NCBI GenBank assembly: GCA_964345445.1
Contig: CAYFQT010000026.1
Span: 5,685 to 69,684 of the forward strand
DNA length: 64,000 nucleotides
Direction of reading: 5' to 3'
DNA from: an uncultured Candidatus Saccharibacteria bacterium
Lineage (GTDB): Bacteria > Patescibacteriota > CPR2_A > CAYFQT01
This document shows positions 2,750 to 52,724 of the stretch, in pieces; the first letter of the stretch is position 1, and each line of letters begins with the position of its first letter. A program made the translations under genes and the position numbers. The notes beneath the pieces were generated by a model. That model made no database searches. It saw only the letters and a list, made by a program, of their open reading frames with translations, and was not told where the DNA came from.

Positions 2750-2787
2750 TACTGGAAAAAATTTTCAATTTTTTTTCAACCCGCCGT

Positions 2788-2871
2788 GCCCTGGTGCTGA
2801 AACTGGTAGACAGGCGTGGTTCAGGACCACGTGCTCAAAAGAGCGTGAGAGTTCGAATCTCTCCCAGGGCA
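2788..2871 (+). tRNA. tRNA-Leu (anticodon CAG), type II with long variable arm
   Basis: Acceptor GCCCTGG/CCAGGGC with discriminator A. Anticodon loop ttCAGga, long variable arm, T-loop TTCGAAT. Confidence 0.8.
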
Positions 2872-2921
2872 TTTTGCCAAATGAAGCCAAAATAGTATAA
2901 TTGAACTAGTTCATTCAATTA

Positions 2922-3005
2922 GCCCCCGTGGCGGAACTGGCATACGCGACAGGTTGAGGGCCTGTGTCCTTTTAGGACGTACTGGTTCAAATCCAGTCGG
3001 GGGCA
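2922..3005 (+). tRNA. tRNA-Leu (anticodon GAG), type II
   Basis: Acceptor GCCCCCG/CGGGGGC with discriminator A. Anticodon loop ttGAGgg, variable-arm hairpin gtcct-ttt-aggac, T-loop TTCAAAT. Confidence 0.7.
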
Positions 3006-3043
3006 CTGCGTTAGAAGAAACCCTTCAATTATTTTATCTTTAA

Positions 3044-3117
3044 GGGTGCTTAGCTCAGTTGGTTAGAGTGACTGGTTTACATCCAGTAGGTCGGGGGTTC
3101 GAATCCCTCAGCACCCA
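3044..3117 (+). tRNA. tRNA-Val (anticodon TAC)
   Basis: GGGTGCTTAGCTCAGTTGG...cloverleaf. Anticodon loop ttTACat, T-arm GGGGGTTCGAATCCCTC, acceptor GGGTGCT/AGCACCC. Confidence 0.85.
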
Positions 3118-3137
3118 CGTCGAAACAAAATTTAAGC

Positions 3138-3165
3138 TTTCGCCCCGAAAGCTTTCGGGGCGAAA
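3138..3165. terminator. Perfect 28-nt palindrome (12-bp GC-rich stem, AGCT loop) between tRNA-Val and tRNA-Phe. Hairpin, possibly a terminator or processing site.
   Basis: TTTCGCCCCGAAAGCTTTCGGGGCGAAA equals its own reverse complement. Confidence 0.5.
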
Positions 3166-3186
3166 ATGAAAGGTTTGTTTGGACGC

Positions 3187-3262
3187 GCCGAGGTAGCTCA
3201 GGTAGTAGAGCACAGGTCTGAAAAACCTGGTGTCCCCAGTGCAAGTCTGGGCCTCGGCACCA
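3187..3262 (+). tRNA. tRNA-Phe (anticodon GAA), with encoded CCA
   Basis: Acceptor GCCGAGG/CCTCGGC + A + CCA. D-arm TAGCTCAGGTAGTAGAGC, anticodon loop ctGAAaa. The T-loop tgcaagt is atypical (G at position 55). Confidence 0.75.
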
Positions 3263-3562
3263 CGTCGAAGTTATTCCACTATACATCCTGCTTCAGCAGG
3301 CTGCACCGCTCCATAAACTTCTCCTCTTTCTACAAAATACTAAAGTATTTTGTCGAGTTGAAAAAATTCTAAAGAATTTTTGCGAAAAAGGAGCATTGCT
3401 GAAGATGGAAACAAAATTTTTGAAGAAAATTTTGTGGAATCGGAGGTTGAAAATTTTACCCGTAAAAATTCTTCAGAATTTTTACGGAAAAGGAGAAGTA
3501 AAGCGAAAATTGGAATGATTTCTTAGGAAGAAATCATAAAAATGGCAGCTTTACTTCGACGT

Positions 3563-3635
3563 GCGGGTGTAGCTCAGTTGATAGAGCATCTGCTTGCCAT
3601 GCAGAAGGTCGTGGGTTTAAGTCCCATCACCCGCT
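3563..3635 (+). tRNA. tRNA-Gly (anticodon GCC)
   Basis: GCGGGTGTAGCTCAGTTGATAGAGC. Anticodon loop ttGCCat, discriminator U as expected for Gly. The overlapping ORF 3542-3817 translates the tRNA (AGVAQLIEH... artefact). Confidence 0.85.
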
Positions 3636-3817
3636 TCGTCGGAATAAACTTCCAGCTTTTGCGAATTTGTTTTACAAATTTGCTACCACTTTCAGTTTAT
3701 TCCTCCTCTTTCGCAAAAAATCTGACGATTTTTTGCAAGACAAAAACATTAGGTGACCTATTTTTCCTGTTTATAAGCGGGGCAGGGTCCGCGGTCTGCC
3801 TGCCCGCCAAAGCCTAG

Positions 3818-3889
3818 GGCCTCGTGACCGAGTGGTTTAGGTAGCGGTCTGCAAAACCGCGTACGGCGGTTCAAATCCGCCCGAGGCCT
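3818..3889 (+). tRNA. tRNA-Cys (anticodon GCA)
   Basis: Acceptor GGCCTCG/CGAGGCC with discriminator U (Cys-typical). Anticodon loop ctGCAaa, T-arm GGCGGTTCAAATCCGCC. Confidence 0.8.
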
Positions 3890-3894
3890 CTGAC

Positions 3895-3990
3895 ACTGGC
3901 AGGCGGGCCTGCCCGCTAATGCAAGCATAGCGTTGCAGGCGGGCAAAACCGAGTACAGCATGCGAATCCGCTCCAGGCCTCCGTAATTAA
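3895..3990 (+). pseudogene. Degenerate tRNA-Cys-like 3' half (tRNA remnant) fused to a GC-rich dispersed motif
   Basis: gcaaaaccgagtacagcatgcgaatccgctccaggcctcc is about 70% identical to the 3' half of the upstream tRNA-Cys but does not form a cloverleaf. Confidence 0.4.
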
Positions 3991-4019
3991 CTCATCTAAG
4001 GCATAATCAGAAAAAATAA

Positions 4020-4103
4020 GGGCGAGTGGCGGAATTGGTATACGCGCGACACTTAAAATGTCGTCCTGTTTACAGGGTGAGGGTTCGAGTCCCTCCTTGC
4101 CCA
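4020..4103 (+). tRNA. tRNA-Leu (anticodon TAA), type II
   Basis: Acceptor GGGCGAG/CTTGCCC with discriminator A. Anticodon stem CGACA/TGTCG with loop ctTAAaa, long variable arm, T-arm GAGGGTTCGAGTCCCTC. Confidence 0.8.
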
Positions 4104-4368
4104 CGTCCAAATAAACTTTCAGTTTTCGCGATCTCACAAAGTGAAATCGCTGTCACTTACAGTTTATTCCTCCTCTTTCTTCAAAATACTAAAGTATTTT
4201 GACGAGTAAATATAATACTTCCGACTTTCATGATTTTGTAGAACAAAATCGTTCTTTTTTAAAAAATCCTTGATTTTTTGATTTATAAGACTTAAAATAA
4301 AATATCTATAAAGAACATTTACAATTAAATACAAGACGAAAATCAAAATTTTAAAGGAGTGATAGTTA

Positions 4369-5160
4369 ATGCTTAATCCGAAATTAACAACTGGAAGAGT
4401 TTTGGGGCATGAAAGTATAAAAAAAAGACTTTCTGGCCTTGAAGATTTGGGTATCAAAGAACCAGGTGTAAAAGTCTTAGAATTATGTAGGGAGAAAAAA
4501 CAACCTGAGGAATTAAAAATAGCCCGGGGATCGGGGAAGATTGTTGTTGATCCTCCTTATACTGAAAAAGATCTCAAAAAACTTCTGGGAAATGTTTCTC
4601 TTGATTTAGAACTTGGCAAAACTTTACGAATTCACACCAATCCCCATTCTCATCCTGTAAATCAAGGAGGAATGTTACAAGATCCTATAGTGGATCTTGA
4701 TGATAAAGATACTTTAAAACAAATTGAGAAACATGATGTTATTTTTGAACTTTCAGATGATAAGCCTTATATATTAACGCCAAGGTCTTTTGTTAAAGCA
4801 ATTACTCATCGAATCTATTGGCTACCTTATGATTTAGTGGGACTAATGGAAGGCAGGAGTAGAGTATGTCGTTGGGGAGTGGCAACGACGGTAAATGCAC
4901 CCAAAATCGATCCTGGTTTTTCAGGAGTAATAGTTTTAGAATTAACTAACTCAGGTGACTACCGATTTGCCCTTAGGAAAGGAATGGCAATCTCTCAAAT
5001 TATGTTTTTTCCTGTAGAAGGAAAAATCGGCAAACCTTATGATGAGACAGGGCGATTCGGAGGTCAAGATGATATCAGATATAGTTTCGCCCCAGATCCT
5101 TTATCAGATTTTTTTGAAATAACAAAACGTGACATTGTCCCTAAAGAAGATGAAAAATAA
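4369..5160 (+). CDS. dcd: dCTP deaminase family protein (dUTPase-fold), extended N-terminus
   Basis: RBS AAAGGAGTG. C-terminal half carries the KIDPGFSGVIVLELTN and GRFGGQ motifs of Dcd/dUTPase-like enzymes. Confidence 0.65.
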   Translation: MLNPKLTTGRVLGHESIKKRLSGLEDLGIKEPGVKVLELCREKKQPEELKIARGSGKIVVDPPYTEKDLKKLLGNVSLDLELGKTLRIHTNPHSHPVNQGGMLQDPIVDLDDKDTLKQIEKHDVIFELSDDKPYILTPRSFVKAITHRIYWLPYDLVGLMEGRSRVCRWGVATTVNAPKIDPGFSGVIVLELTNSGDYRFALRKGMAISQIMFFPVEGKIGKPYDETGRFGGQDDIRYSFAPDPLSDFFEITKRDIVPKEDEK

Positions 5161-15059: not shown

Positions 15060-16646
15060 ATGAATTTAGAAAATCTTACAATTTTACAAGCTCATAAGAA
15101 GCTGAAAAATAAAGAGACTTCATCGGTTGAATTAACCAAAGCAGTTTTGGATAGAATTAAAAAGACTGATAATAAGATTAATGCTTTTATTACAGTCACA
15201 GAAAAAGAAGCATTAAAACAAGCAGAAGAGGCTGACAAACGGATTAAAACTGGAAAGATGCTGAGTAAACTTGATGGAATTCCAGTGGCTCTAAAAGACA
15301 ATATGGCAACAGAAGGAATTTTAACAACAGCTGGTTCTAAGATTTTAGAGAATTTTAAACCGCCTTATGATGCTACAGTTGTTAAAAAAATAAAAGATGC
15401 TGGTGCTATTATTATTGGCAAAACCAATATGGATGAGTTTGCCATGGGTTCTTCTTGTGAAACTTCTTATTTTGGTCCTACGAAAAATCCTTGGGATACA
15501 TCCCGAGTTCCTGGTGGCTCTTCAGGAGGTTCTGCAGCGGCTGTTTCAGCTTCACAATGCATTTATGCCCTGGGTTCTGATACCGGTGGTTCTATTCGCC
15601 AACCAGCCTCTTTTTGTGGTTGTGTAGGCTTAAAACCTACTTATGGTCGAGTATCTCGATATGGTCTTTTGGCTATGGCCTCTTCTTTGGATCAAATTGG
15701 ACCACTTGTAAAAAATACAGAAGATGCAGCAGCAGTTTTGGAGGCTATTTCTGGATATGATGGGGAAGATAGCACAAGCGTAGACAAAAAGTTCAAAGTT
15801 CAAAGTTCAAAGTTCAAAGTTTTAAAAAATGTAAAAATTGGGATTGCTAAGGAGTATTTTAGGGAAGGTTTAGATAAAAAAGTTGAAGATAAGATAAAAT
15901 CAGCGATTAAAGTTTTAGAGTCAAGGGGAGCCAAGATTGAAAATGTTAGCTTACCTCATACTCAATATACCTTAGCTTGCTATTATATAATTATGCCTTC
16001 AGAAGCTTCCACTAATTTAGCCAGATATGATGGAATAAAATATGGATATTCAACCACTCAAATCTCAAATCTCAACTCTCAAAACTTATTAGATGTCTAT
16101 CTACAATCAAGGGCAGAAGGTTTTGGAGATGAGGTAAAAAGGCGAATAATGTTAGGAACTCATACATTATCTTCAGGTTATTATGATCAATATTACTTAA
16201 AAGCTGCTAAAGTTAGAACAAAAATAAAAGAAGATTTTGACAAAGCATTTTCTAAAGTGGATGTTTTAATAACTCCTACTTCACCAACTGTTGCTTTTCC
16301 ACTCGGGGAAAAGTTAGATGATCCATTGACTATGTATTTATCGGATATTTATACAGTACCGGTTAATTTAGCCGGAGTGCCGGCAATTTCTGTTCCTTGT
16401 GGACTAGTTAAAAAGGTTACTAAAAGTTACCAAAAGGATACTAAAAAGTTACTAAAGAGAGTTGATAAAAATACTTTTAGTAACAATTTGCAACCCCTAG
16501 TAACCCCTAGTAGCTCATTATTACCTGTAGGTTTACAAATAATAGGTCCTCAGTGGGGAGAAGAGAAAATTCTACAAACAGCTTATATCTATGAACAGGC
16601 AACAAAAGATGAGGGGTGGAGGAAATTAAAGCCAAGTATAAAGTAA
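15060..16646 (+). CDS. gatA: Glu-tRNA(Gln) amidotransferase subunit A, with in-frame repeat insertions
   Basis: Amidase signature [11 protein letters not shown], plus [10 protein letters not shown] and the catalytic Ser/Lys context. Three low-complexity inserts are encoded by short DNA repeats. Confidence 0.9.
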
Positions 16647-20131: not shown

Positions 20132-20457
20132 TTCGAAGAATATTGAGAATTACTAATGAACAATTGCTAATTTCTAATCAAATCCCAATGACTAATAAAG
20201 AAACAAAATTCTAAATCCGAAATTCTAAATACTAAATCCTAAATCCCAACGGGATCCCTTCGGGACAATATCAAATGACCAAAATGCTACCACAGCCCCA
20301 CCCAACCACCCTTTTATTGTATAGATTATATAACAAAACAATATAAGTTTAGAACATTGGAAAATTTGAATTTTGAATTTATTTAGGATTTAGAAATTAG
20401 ATATTAGAAATTTTATAAGATAAGTTAATTGTGTTATATTAAAACCAAGGAAAAATA

Positions 20458-21099: not shown

Positions 21100-21258
21100 T
21101 GTAAAAATTCTAAATCCGAAATCCTAAACAATATCTAAATTCCAATGTTCAAAATTCTAAACATTATATTTGTTTTGGTCATTTGGATTTAGATATTAGG
21201 ATTTGTTTAGAAATTAGATATTAGAAATTAGGATTTTAATTTAAAGGGGTGAACAAAT

Positions 21259-48753: not shown

Positions 48754-49365
48754 TTGTTGAATTACTACAATTGTATATTTGAAGGAATTTTTATGTATTT
48801 TATTCAAAAGTTTATCCAAAAATATCAAACTCAAATAGGAATTTTTTTGATAATCTTGATAGCAATAGGTGGGGGAATAATTTTATTTTCTTATCAAAGA
48901 CCTGAACCTGTTGAGATTAAAGAAGCTGAAAGCAGTCAAGAAATTAAAGTAGATATAGAAGGAGCAGTGGAACATCCAGGTGTCTATACTTTCTATCAAG
49001 GAGATAGAGTAGAGGATGCTATCTTTGCTGCTGGTCCAAAAGAAGATGCTGATTTATCCAAAGTAGAGATGAGTTTAGCAGCAAAACTTATAGATGGGCA
49101 AAGGATAATTGTACCCAGTCGAGAAGAGGTAGCAGGTATTACAACAAGTTCTTCAGTAAGTTCCTCGGAAGGAAAAATTAATATTAATACTGCTTCTTTG
49201 GGTGAGTTAGATACTCTGCCTGGAATAGGGGAGAAGACAGCACAAAAGATTATTGACTGGCGGGATACTTATGGAGGATTTAGAACTATCGAGGATATTA
49301 AAGATGTTAAAGGAATAGGAGATAAGAAATTTGAAGATATGAAAGATTATATAACTGTGTATTAG
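48754..49365 (+). CDS. comEA: ComEA-like competence protein (SLBB + tandem helix-hairpin-helix)
   Basis: N-terminal TM. INTASLGELDTLPGIGEKTAQKIIDWRDTYGGFRTIEDIKDVKGIGDKKFEDMK is the HhH DNA-binding module. Confidence 0.7.
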   Translation: MLNYYNCIFEGIFMYFIQKFIQKYQTQIGIFLIILIAIGGGIILFSYQRPEPVEIKEAESSQEIKVDIEGAVEHPGVYTFYQGDRVEDAIFAAGPKEDADLSKVEMSLAAKLIDGQRIIVPSREEVAGITTSSSVSSSEGKININTASLGELDTLPGIGEKTAQKIIDWRDTYGGFRTIEDIKDVKGIGDKKFEDMKDYITVY

Positions 49366-49394: not shown

Positions 49395-49506
49395 TTCTTC
49401 GGGGTGAAATTGGAAGCCAATGCGACATGGGCGGGTGGCGACAATTTTATAAATTGGATCGTAGCCGAAGGCGGAGATCAGTTTGGTAGACATGTCCCGA
49501 AGATGT
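49395..49506 (+). ncRNA. GC-rich structured RNA domain immediately 5' of tRNA-Leu(TAG). Function unknown.
   Basis: The closing helix UCUUCGGG (49395-49403) pairs with CCCGAAGA (49496-49503). The interior is GC-rich in an AT-rich genome. A tmRNA-like 5' motif GGGG...CGAC-A-GGG is also present. Confidence 0.3.
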
Positions 49507-49596
49507 GCGGGCGTGGCGGAATTTGGAAGACGCGCGTGGCTTAGGACCACGTTCCCATTTATGGGATTGGAGGTTCAAGTCCTCCCGCCCGCACCA
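49507..49596 (+). tRNA. tRNA-Leu (anticodon TAG), type II, with encoded CCA
   Basis: Acceptor GCGGGCG/CGCCCGC + A + CCA. Anticodon stem CGTGG/CCACG with loop ctTAGga, variable hairpin CCCAT-tt-ATGGG, T-loop TTCAAGT. Confidence 0.85.
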
Positions 49597-49644
49597 TTGG
49601 GATACCCAAAAGGCATAGAGGTTCAAATCCTCTCACCGGCACCA
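49597..49644 (+). other. tRNA 3' fragment (variable-arm hairpin + T-arm + acceptor 3' strand + CCA) abutting tRNA-Leu
   Basis: TTGGG-ata-CCCAA, then AGAGGTTCAAATCCTCT, then CACCGGC-A-CCA. No matching 5' acceptor strand was found. A terminator hairpin GACC..GGTC + T7 follows at 49663-49686. Confidence 0.4.
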
Positions 49645-51094: not shown

Positions 51095-52396
51095 ATGAAA
51101 GTAGAAAAAGAAAAATTACCTAAAAGTCAAATAAAATTAACCATTAAGGTTCCTGTACATGATGTGAATAATTTTTTAGACCAAGCTTATAGACGCTTGG
51201 CTGAAAAAGTGAAAATTCCTGGTTTTCGTCCTGGAAAAGCTCCTCGTTTTATGATAGATCAAGAGGTAGGTACAGACAAAGTTCAGGAACAGACTTTAGA
51301 AATTGCTGTATCTCAAACATATTTTCAAGCAGTATCTTCTGAGAAAATTGTTCCAATTGCCAAACCAGAAGTGAAAATTTTAAAATTTGCCAAAGGCAAT
51401 TCCTTAGTATATGAGGCGATAGTTCCAATAATGCCTGAGGTTATCTTAGACGACTACAAGAAGAAAGTTGGTTCTTTATCTTTAAAACCTGAAAAAATTT
51501 CAGTTGGTCAAAAAGATATAGATGAGGCTCTTTTAGGTCTGCAAAAAAGTAAAGCAGAATTTATTTCAACATCTCGATCCGCTCGTAAAGGCGATAGAGT
51601 AGAGATTGATTTTGATGCTTCAATTAATAGGGTCCCTTTGGAAAAAGGCAAAAGCAGGAATCACCCACTTATAATTGGAGATGGAATGTTTGTTCCAGGA
51701 TTTGAAGATAATTTAATTGGAATGAAAAAAAATGAGAAAAAAGAATTTTCCATTGTTTTTCCTAAAGATTATCTCAAGAGAGAATTGGCAGGTGAAAAAG
51801 TAGATTTTAAAGTTCTCCTAAAAGATATTCGAGAAGTTAAATTACCTCCTTTGAATGATAAGTTTGCAAAAGAAGTAACCAAAATAGATTCTCTTTCGGA
51901 ACTTAAAGAAGATATTAAAAAAAGATTGCAAATAGAGAAAGAAAAAAGACAAAAAATAGAGTTTGAATCAAAAATAATAGAAGAAGTTGTGAATTGTGCC
52001 CGTACAGAGACACCGGAGATTTTAGTAGAAGAAGAAATTAAATCAATGATTTCCGAATTAAAAAATCGATTAGAAAATCAAGGATTAAAATTGGAACAAT
52101 ATTTAAAAAATATTAAAAAGAAGGAGGAAGATTTAAAACAAGAATATAAAAAAGAGGCGGAAAAAAGAATTAAAACTGCGTTAGTATTGAATAAAATAGC
52201 CCTTAAAGAGAAAATTAAAGTTACAGATAAAGATGTACAAAATGAGTTTGATAGGATGATTAAAGCTTATCCTCAAGAGGTAGATAAGATAAAAGAAAAA
52301 CTTTCTTCTGATAAAGATAAGCAGTATGTAAGAAATATCTTGCGGAATCAAAAAACAATAAAAAGATTAATGGAATTAGCAAATAGAAATGACTAA
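51095..52396 (+). CDS. tig: trigger factor
   Basis: N-terminal ribosome-binding domain (GFRPGKAPR), FKBP-like PPIase middle domain, C-terminal helical arms. 433 aa. Confidence 0.85.
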   Translation: MKVEKEKLPKSQIKLTIKVPVHDVNNFLDQAYRRLAEKVKIPGFRPGKAPRFMIDQEVGTDKVQEQTLEIAVSQTYFQAVSSEKIVPIAKPEVKILKFAKGNSLVYEAIVPIMPEVILDDYKKKVGSLSLKPEKISVGQKDIDEALLGLQKSKAEFISTSRSARKGDRVEIDFDASINRVPLEKGKSRNHPLIIGDGMFVPGFEDNLIGMKKNEKKEFSIVFPKDYLKRELAGEKVDFKVLLKDIREVKLPPLNDKFAKEVTKIDSLSELKEDIKKRLQIEKEKRQKIEFESKIIEEVVNCARTETPEILVEEEIKSMISELKNRLENQGLKLEQYLKNIKKKEEDLKQEYKKEAEKRIKTALVLNKIALKEKIKVTDKDVQNEFDRMIKAYPQEVDKIKEKLSSDKDKQYVRNILRNQKTIKRLMELANRND

Positions 52397-52724
52397 TGAC
52401 CAATTACTAATTCTTAATCAAATCCTAATGATAAATAAAAATGTCAAATGACTAATTTTAAAATACCAAATAAAATCCAAATGGCTAATGACAAAATATT
52501 TAGAAATTTAATAATTTATTTATTGATTTGGCATTTGGATTTTGATATTAGACATTAATTAGACTTACTTTGACTTGCCGAAGGCGAGGCAGGCATTAGG
52601 TCAACCTGTGACTAATGCAAGCATAGTGTTGCAGGCGGGTTAGAAATTAGAAATTTTACATATATGCTATCAATTATTATTTGTATAAAGTTTAGCGTTA
52701 TTTTGTGTTTAAAAGGAGGGAGAT

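Follow-up and report, generated by a model that had tools for sequence, protein, structure and literature searches.

How did the decayed 3' half of a tRNA-Cys gene come to lie just behind a working tRNA-Cys gene, next to a GC-rich motif that occurs again upstream of clpP? The preliminary description of this locus had taken the arrangement as a footprint of integrase-mediated insertion. The stretch of DNA that was analysed, called the window below, is 64 kb long; its overall GC content is 33%, and that of the GC island at the motif is 0.60. The housekeeping genes of the window comprise ligA, gatCAB, dnaE, nusA, clpC, radA, recG, comEA, tig, clpP and rpoB. The named homologs of its trigger factor are all from Patescibacteria, Parcubacteria, Moranbacteria or Portnoybacteria, and the window is therefore assigned to CPR/Patescibacteria. 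Over the whole window, 42 of the 44 open reading frames of at least 90 amino acids lie on the + strand.

Composition of the tRNA-Cys locus

The working tRNA-Cys(GCA) gene is one of a cluster of seven tRNA genes (2787-4104). The features in and around it are, from left to right:

3777-3786, + strand: GCGGGGCAGG, the reverse complement of the 5' arm of the element with one additional G (sequence and arm searches)
3791-3798, + strand: GCGGTCTG, identical in local alignment to tRNA-Cys positions 27-34 (5' strand of the anticodon stem and the loop as far as G34)
3799-3807, + strand: 5' arm CCTGCCCGC of unit 1 (exact match), with which a 145-nt block starts on its left side
3818-3890, + strand: working tRNA-Cys(GCA) (ARAGORN; Rfam, 62.1 bits), with the canonical T-loop TTCAAAT
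3899-3907, + strand: 3' arm GCAGGCGGG of unit 1 (exact match)
3908-3943, + strand: complete 36-nt unit CCTGCCCGC-T-AATGCAAGCATAGCGTT-GCAGGCGGG, with the 27-mer motif inside it (family HMM, E=3e-10)
3944-3981, + strand: dead 3' half of an older tRNA-Cys, positions 35-73 (28/39 identities, 72%; 0 of 500 shuffles as good)

As first described, the working gene is followed by a degenerate copy of its 3' half, which neither ARAGORN nor Rfam calls as a tRNA and in which the T stem is broken. The motif does not interrupt this copy, as had been proposed, and instead lies between it and the working gene: the dead half starts at C35, the base directly after the 3' arm that ends at 3943, at a distance of 53 nt from tRNA-Cys. 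The recurrence of the motif upstream of clpP is confirmed, one base lower than it had been placed, in that the 28-mer CTAATGCAAGCATAGCGTTGCAGGCGGG (3916-3943) has a match with one mismatch (C to T) at 52612-52639 and none in 100 shuffles. The GC-rich hairpin noticed ahead of the tRNA is likewise present, as GCGGGGCAGG...CCTGCCCGC at 3777-3807, with 3777-3786 pairing with 3799-3807. Its predicted free energies are -9.1 kcal/mol as DNA and -16 kcal/mol as RNA, no better than those of shuffled sequences; GCGGGGCAGG is probably the remnant of an inverted unit.

The block (3799-3943) is made up, in order, of the 5' arm, 10 nt, tRNA-Cys, 8 nt, the 3' arm and the full unit, such that the working gene stands between two arms, one 10 nt upstream and the other 8 nt downstream. 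Among the 33 tRNAs in all the sequence examined, tRNA-Cys is the single case of such bracketing. On its left side the block directly adjoins positions 27-34 of tRNA-Cys, and on its right side positions 35-73. Taken as a free local alignment, the 8-mer GCGGTCTG carries no significance; that it should exactly adjoin the 5' arm has a chance of about 4^-8 per candidate boundary, and this placement matters because an insertion in the anticodon loop predicts exactly such an adjacency. We read GCGGTCTG, from its position and identity, as a putative leftover of the 5' part of an older tRNA-Cys, abutting the arm of the element. The remainder of the old 5' half was looked for upstream of 3791 and was undetectable.

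The dead half shares the T-loop TGCGAAT, with a G at the place of the near-universal U55, with the tRNA-Cys ortholog of a relative (L022, 4663-4735), whereas the working gene has TTCAAAT. The working tRNA-Cys is thus probably no simple duplicate of the old gene. A full-length pseudo-tRNA was considered and rejected, the 5' acceptor match GGCCTGC being simply the 5' arm of the element, found with identical sequence in other genomes. We note that the locus was read from one assembly, the contigs of other assemblies ending before this copy.

It is extremely unlikely that the 3' half of tRNA-Cys was simply duplicated in place and then decayed beside a hairpin unrelated to it. Such partial copying does have a parallel in the window, where a partial tRNA copy at 49597-49644 follows tRNA-Leu(tag) and is free of any unit. 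Against it, the unit passes into the half with no base between them, the far end of the block is directly adjoined by positions 27-34, and the pairing of a unit with a tRNA fragment recurs at two further loci (L029 and L036, below). In addition, the T-loop difference is not of the kind produced by AT-biased decay, and it is the dead copy, not the working gene, that matches the ortholog of the relative.

A dispersed family of 36-nt palindromes

The 27-mer motif makes up most of an imperfect, GC-rich palindrome of 36 nt, whose arms are CCTGCCCGC and GCAGGCGGG and whose consensus is CCTGCCCGC-(T/G/none)-AATGCAAGCATAGCGTT-GCAGGCGGG. A dispersal scan with the exact 23-nt core, over one genome per species, found 19 stretches in five MAGs (Saccharibacteria, two Falkowbacteria, Komeilibacteria and Berkelbacteria), and a metagenome scan with the same core found 9 further stretches. 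The fetched parts of one Saccharibacteria and one Falkowbacteria MAG hold about 11 and about 12 copies, respectively. Since the core searches were exact, the conservation of the core partly reflects how the copies were found; CCTGCCCGC, though outside the search pattern, precedes the core in all but 4 of 30 copies, and GGG follows it in all but 2 of 30. Almost every copy is intergenic, both orientations with respect to the flanking genes occur, and no protein family is shared among the element loci. A tRNA is found within 200 nt for five of about 30 copies, a number that is not clearly above expectation when set against non-coding DNA.

The same arms also occur with other loops. A scan of IMG/VR for the two arms with any sequence of 10-40 nt between them yielded at least 120 stretches with up to 3 copies per stretch. 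Many of these are clear family members, with loops of the form NNTGC...GCG(T/A)T, and some matches on high-GC contigs are probably due to chance. One contig with a family member (L097) encodes a terminase and a lambda-type portal and is a true phage; others carry ParB, a HerA/TrwB-like ATPase or a methyltransferase. The exact core had no match in IMG/VR, cultured phages or plasmids.

The earlier proposal that the 27-mer belongs to a small, dispersed and apparently mobile or recombinogenic element is supported by its many CPR copies, together with the empty sites in relatives and the nesting described below. Two observations had been named beforehand as speaking against that proposal, a 27-mer confined to its two sites in the window and relatives with the same arrangement but no linked cargo. 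The 27-mer is far from unique; on the second point, the tRNA-Cys site of the relative is empty, lacking the unit.

Subtypes differ from genome to genome: the T behind the 5' arm is present in the Falkowbacteria and in the window and absent from all Saccharibacteria copies, a distribution that points to likely multiplication within genomes. All copies in the Falkowbacteria MAG JACRNW01 have the T and form the tip of a composite repeat about 170 nt long. Direct tandem units are found with a 35-nt period in L012, and behind a unit with another loop in L009 and L013. The composite repeat of JACRNW01 has at least eight near-identical occurrences (L004, L010, L011, L016, L020 and L021) and consists of a CCCCTCTTAAG...AGAGGGG hairpin, a nested pair of units and a GGGGCGTTATGA...TCATAACCCC hairpin; a portion of its flank, GGAGTTATGAA, recurs in L019 and in the IMG/VR contigs L083 and L092.

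The predicted hairpin of the unit has a free energy of -17.3 kcal/mol (z -2.3) as RNA of the + strand, against -14.6 kcal/mol for the other strand, and of -10.1 kcal/mol (z -2.2) as DNA. Across 17 distinct family sequences, two pairing registers fit equally (88-89% paired) and covariation is weak, with only one covarying pair; as a model, the hairpin structure is plausible. The mispairs in the arms are the same in all copies, and this suggests that the sequence is recognised and not just a stem. Three scans against Rfam 15 at permissive E-values gave no match for the unit, the matches being to tRNAs, rRNAs and one FMN riboswitch. In the literature we found no paper describing the sequence of the unit, and a search for CPR palindromes and MITEs led only to TIGR-Tas.

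Units as probable discrete insertions at hairpin tips

Units are nested within units. When a minimal unit is taken out, the sequences joined at the cut form a second unit in 10 distinct parses at 8 loci, in both relative orientations; in L088, for example, CCTGCCCGC and AATGCTTCGCAA are followed by the inner unit and then by CGCGAG and GCAGGCGGG. The FMN riboswitch of L037 (171-323) contains a unit as a 39-nt insertion in the terminal loop of P2, where the consensus has about 4 nt, and with the unit included it scores 66.3 bits, at the Rfam gathering score. Many other copies have complementary flanks, such that the unit caps a longer hairpin (L030, L018 and the Saccharibacteria and Falkowbacteria copies).

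Fragments of tRNA genes are interrupted in the same manner. In L029, a truncated tRNA-Met copy (leader and positions 1-35) is followed by a unit, positions 36-42, a leader and the intact tRNA-Met, and the unit lies exactly between A35 and T36 of the truncated copy. The duplicated stretch there is about 70 nt long and differs at one base, and the locus is at the contig end. In L036, a 5' fragment of tRNA-Ala is identical to the neighbouring intact gene over positions 1-33 and ends at 33/34; a unit is one of the two insertions that its D loop contains. Removal of the unit, carried out for 136 units, never restored a tRNA accepted by ARAGORN; the interrupted tRNAs are therefore dead copies and not intron-bearing genes. 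A tRNA intron was likewise rejected on the ground that the interrupted copies in L029 and L036 are truncated fragments. No common target sequence or target-site duplication is apparent at 17 junctions read by eye; target duplication is absent from the clean junctions of L029 and L088 and amounts to at most 1 nt in the window. The best-supported statement, a descriptive one, is that the units behave as discrete blocks copied into single-stranded hairpin tips.

These junctions also bear on the possibility that nothing transposes, and that shared palindromes are spread by homologous or illegitimate recombination and by replication or repair errors that the hairpins provoke. For tRNA-Cys, foreign DNA with a tRNA-Cys gene between units would then have recombined with units already present at the resident gene. 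Identical units across phyla provide portable homology for such events, the tandem, merged and mosaic arrangements resemble those of yeast mitochondrial GC clusters (PMC4478555), local direct duplications lie beside the units in L029 and L036, and the lack of target duplication and transposase is as expected. The clean boundaries in the nests and the 35/36 junction in tRNA-Met are nonetheless easier to obtain by insertion of a discrete unit, and the genome-specific subtypes suggest copying of a master sequence. We regard this explanation as unlikely, with a real chance of being correct, and we infer from the patterns that the units transpose rather than spread by recombination alone.

Corresponding sites in relatives

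The closest available comparison for the tRNA-Cys site is L022, a relative with the same gene order and a dCTP deaminase 77% identical to that of the window. Its tRNA-Cys is flanked on both sides by AT-rich spacers of 39-40 nt and the unit is absent. For the clpP site, the relative L038 (trigger factor 73% identical) has a tig-clpP spacer that is AT-rich throughout, with no GC island. The nearest relatives compared thus carry neither of the window copies. The metagenome assembly from which L022 derives does contain a unit, in the spacer between tRNA-Ile and tRNA-Ala of an rRNA operon (L036), a contig that is not assignable to the L022 organism. More distant loci with dCTP deaminase homologs (L024-L028) are not syntenic or have short upstream sequence and fall outside the comparison.

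The tRNA cluster is a hotspot for small insertions. L022 has, between tRNA-Phe and tRNA-Gly, an 85-aa GIY-YIG open reading frame (4273-4530) that is absent from the window. The tRNA genes are followed by conserved trailers composed of CGTCGGA/CGTCCAA, a AATAAACTT...CAGTTTATT hairpin and then CCTCCTCTTTC (window 3636-3712 and 4105-4180; L022 4623-4662; L036 12500-12544). In the relatives, tRNAs have hairpins of the TCCGAC/GTCGGA type on their flanks, and in L036 a group of these hairpins, 56 nt in all, is inserted in the D loop of the dead tRNA-Ala fragment. These sequences may act as processing signals or may constitute another small-palindrome family.

The second copy upstream of clpP

The second copy in the window is located 85 nt upstream of clpP and consists of two parts:

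52574-52595, + strand: decayed upstream unit (CTTGCC-GAAGGCGAG-GCAGGC), 14/18 identical to GCTGAAAGCGTTGCAGGC, a weak likeness (19 of 500 shuffles)
52605-52639, + strand: copy 2 of the unit; its 5' arm is decayed (CCTG-TGAC) and its loop has a single C to T change (HMM E=2e-4)

In Saccharibacteria, the 36-mer is preceded by a variant-loop unit, and it is the 3' part of this unit that 52574-52595 weakly resembles; copy 2 may represent a tandem pair of units that is older and in decay. Two independent assemblies from the same population (GCA_012974985.1 and Logan ERR2564001) carry copy 2 in identical form. Neither window copy is called as a terminator or has a terminator-like T run. An operator of the CtsR/CIRCE type upstream of clpP was considered and discarded, the direct heptad repeat being absent on inspection by eye.

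Could the hairpin instead be a selected functional signal, acting in RNA processing or stability, protein binding or uptake, with coincidental neighbours? The stable fold, better on the + strand as RNA, is consistent with such a role, as are the arm mismatches common to all copies, which suggest sequence-specific recognition, and the location of copies in transcribed spacers (for example a tRNA cluster, an rRNA operon spacer and upstream of clpP). We nevertheless find it quite improbable. The copies occur in both orientations relative to genes, have no T-tail and belong to no Rfam family; orthologous sites of relatives are without the unit and copy 2 is decaying; and units are nested in units and inside dead tRNA fragments.

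The window holds a second working tRNA with tRNA fragments on its flanks, here without a 36-nt unit. tRNA-Leu(tag) (49507-49596, within the interval 49465-49644) lies just downstream of comEA (48754-49365) and is joined without a gap to a 48-nt 3' fragment of another long-arm tRNA (49597-49644), which has the T arm GAGGTTCAAATCCTC and the end GGCACCA and no 36-nt unit. The sequence before tRNA-Leu(tag), GCCGAAGGCGGAGATCAGTTTGGTAGAC, looks like the 5' part of a tRNA-Leu. The 10-mer GCCGAAGGCG recurs at 52577, at the start of the GC island of copy 2 (1 of 500 shuffles).

Gene content and the search for an enzyme

The 64-kb window encodes no integrase, transposase, RAYT (by Pfam), reverse transcriptase or cargo. 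The RAYT motif HUH...Y-x-x-N-P is absent from 5,581 open reading frames in 1.3 Mb of related loci. We tentatively guess, by analogy and with low confidence, that the units would be moved by a trans-acting enzyme of the HUH/RAYT type that acts on hairpins in single-stranded DNA; recombination or hairpin-provoked repair with no dedicated enzyme is a close rival to this mechanism.

The window has other small repeats and a possible small insertion. Between gatC and gatA, a 141-aa open reading frame of the '23S rRNA intervening sequence protein' family (PF05635; 14535-15036) is flanked by a 43-nt inverted repeat built of TTACTA-type heptamers and has the appearance of a small cassette that was inserted. 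AT-rich repeats with a period of about 7 nt (AGTTCAA, TTACTAA, AAATCCT, TATCCAG) fill intergenic spacers (15790-15829, 20148-20250, 21104-21236 and 52388-52560). Repeats of the same style are found in L038 (3800-3900) and in the IMG/VR contig L057 (1444-1672), which carries the hairpin family.

Origin of the tRNA-Cys arrangement

The anticodon loop is a known crossover sublocation for integrases that target tRNA genes, and the arrangement could in principle be what remained of an island or prophage integrated in the anticodon loop of tRNA-Cys and later deleted, leaving an attR half and hairpins. The dead 3' half does start in the anticodon loop, and its differences from the working gene suggest two origins. 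The integrase-mediated insertion proposed initially is nevertheless very unlikely on the present data, given that 64 kb contain neither integrase nor cargo and that the tRNA and the half are only 53 nt apart. An attL/attR pair would not be expected to leave the remnant of positions 27-34 on the upstream side of the working tRNA; its location there fits an insertion in the old anticodon loop. Moreover, the other copies, about 30 in number, have no linked protein gene in common, and neither the nested units nor the riboswitch insertion requires an integrase. The element looks like small selfish DNA and not like a prophage scar.

We consider it probable that the element is a mobile mini-palindrome of the REP/MITE-like kind that lands in hairpin loops, and that a 145-nt block built from it split an older tRNA-Cys. 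The family consists of non-coding mini-elements of 24-36 nt that would multiply within genomes and pass between them; its members occur in CPR/Patescibacteria and in IMG/VR contigs, at least one of which is a true phage. Units would insert at the tips of existing hairpins, be these other units, intergenic palindromes, a riboswitch stem-loop or the anticodon and D loops of tRNAs. At the locus considered here, the block (3799-3943) may be regarded as one unit with a complete tRNA-Cys in its loop plus one ordinary unit, and would have split the older tRNA-Cys between G34 and C35. The tRNA-Cys of the block would then have taken over the function, while the displaced 3' half (3944-3981) decayed and 8 nt of the 5' part were left.

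The family and its dispersal, the nesting, the filled and empty sites between relatives and the exact junctions are direct observations; this order of events is one that we infer from the layout. With 8 nt left of the 5' half against a 3' half that is 72% intact, an extra deletion must be assumed. The loss of the 5' half, the occurrence of the arm-tRNA-arm arrangement in only one of 33 tRNAs and the reliance on a single assembly all weaken the reading in which an older tRNA-Cys was split.

A bolder version of the split holds that the units form a hairpin-loop-homing class of mobile element, possibly with an RNA or single-stranded DNA intermediate, that is able to carry a complete tRNA gene in its own loop, and that tRNA-Cys is a self-rescuing replacement cassette. 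We think this doubtful, and would not expect it to hold. If it were true, the loaded unit would have destroyed the resident gene via its anticodon while supplying the replacement, and so could not be lost; it would also offer a route for the exchange of tRNA genes between CPR lineages and their phages.

Comparison with known systems

REP/REPIN sequences, found mostly in Proteobacteria, are extragenic imperfect palindromes of about 35 nt with conserved mispairs, and are mobilised by RAYT transposases of the Y1 HUH class, whose genes typically have REPs on their flanks. The unit shares with them its size of 36 nt, its extragenic location, its imperfect palindromy, its many copies, its non-coding nature, its conserved mispairs and, presumably, its movement in trans. 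A conserved CCTG 5' of the hairpin foot, unpaired in the DNA fold register only, adds to the likeness. Unlike REP/REPIN, the unit has no GTAG-type tetranucleotide at the 5' foot. No RAYT was found in the 64 kb or in the 1.3 Mb of loci. The units are solitary, in direct tandem or nested instead of forming inverted doublets, one unit is common to several phyla, and units occur in the hairpin loops of RNA genes. MITEs have terminal inverted repeats and a target-site duplication; the arms of the unit are imperfect inverted repeats, and the absence of target-site duplication sets it apart from them.

Rickettsia palindromic elements measure 100-150 bp and are often in frame within proteins. They resemble the unit as selfish palindromes of a host-dependent bacterium with a reduced, AT-rich genome that insert at tolerated positions of functional genes, RNA genes among them, and differ from it in that the unit here is 24-36 nt long and located at hairpin tips. 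Integrative elements that target tRNA genes by tyrosine integrases, with crossover in the anticodon loop, have their integrase gene and cargo between a complete tRNA (attL) and a direct repeat of its 3' part (attR). With them, the locus shares a displaced partial tRNA that begins in the anticodon loop beside a working tRNA; it differs in having no integrase or cargo and in having the old 5' remnant on the wrong side.

The GC clusters of yeast mitochondria and other mitochondrial hairpin elements are short GC-rich palindromes in AT-rich genomes, with conserved stems, variable loops and units that merge and shuffle; they vary between close relatives and may be transferred via flanking homology, their mechanism being unknown, and yeast GC42 has an AG target duplication (PMC4478555, PMC2800124). 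By analogy, the unit is a GC-rich palindrome in a window of 33% GC, with empty sites in relatives and with nests and tandems. In contrast to the mitochondrial elements, it is non-organellar, shows no AG duplication and is unrelated in sequence.

TIGR arrays consist of 36-nt tigRNA units with 16-18 variable spacer bases beside a Tas gene with a Nop domain, and the length of 36 nt, the occurrence in CPR bacteria and phages and the hairpin-like units are common to both systems (PMC12045711). A TIGR array was rejected for the present units, which are invariant, mostly solitary and not in arrays, and which have no gene common to their loci. An intrinsic terminator was rejected as well, there being no T run and the flanks after the unit being variable.

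CPR bacteria have tiny genomes that are thought to be poor in repeated or selfish DNA. This case by itself opens no long-standing question. A palindromic mini-element present across CPR phyla, with variants in a virus catalogue, would mark gene flow among them, and would be a source of genome rearrangement, tRNA pseudogenes and turnover of tRNA genes. Since units are located at hairpin tips, among them a riboswitch stem and tRNA loops, an RNA gene annotated in such a genome as split or 'intron-like' may owe this to an insertion of the element, and with the unit there is a concrete substrate with which to look for the enzyme that moves such hairpins.
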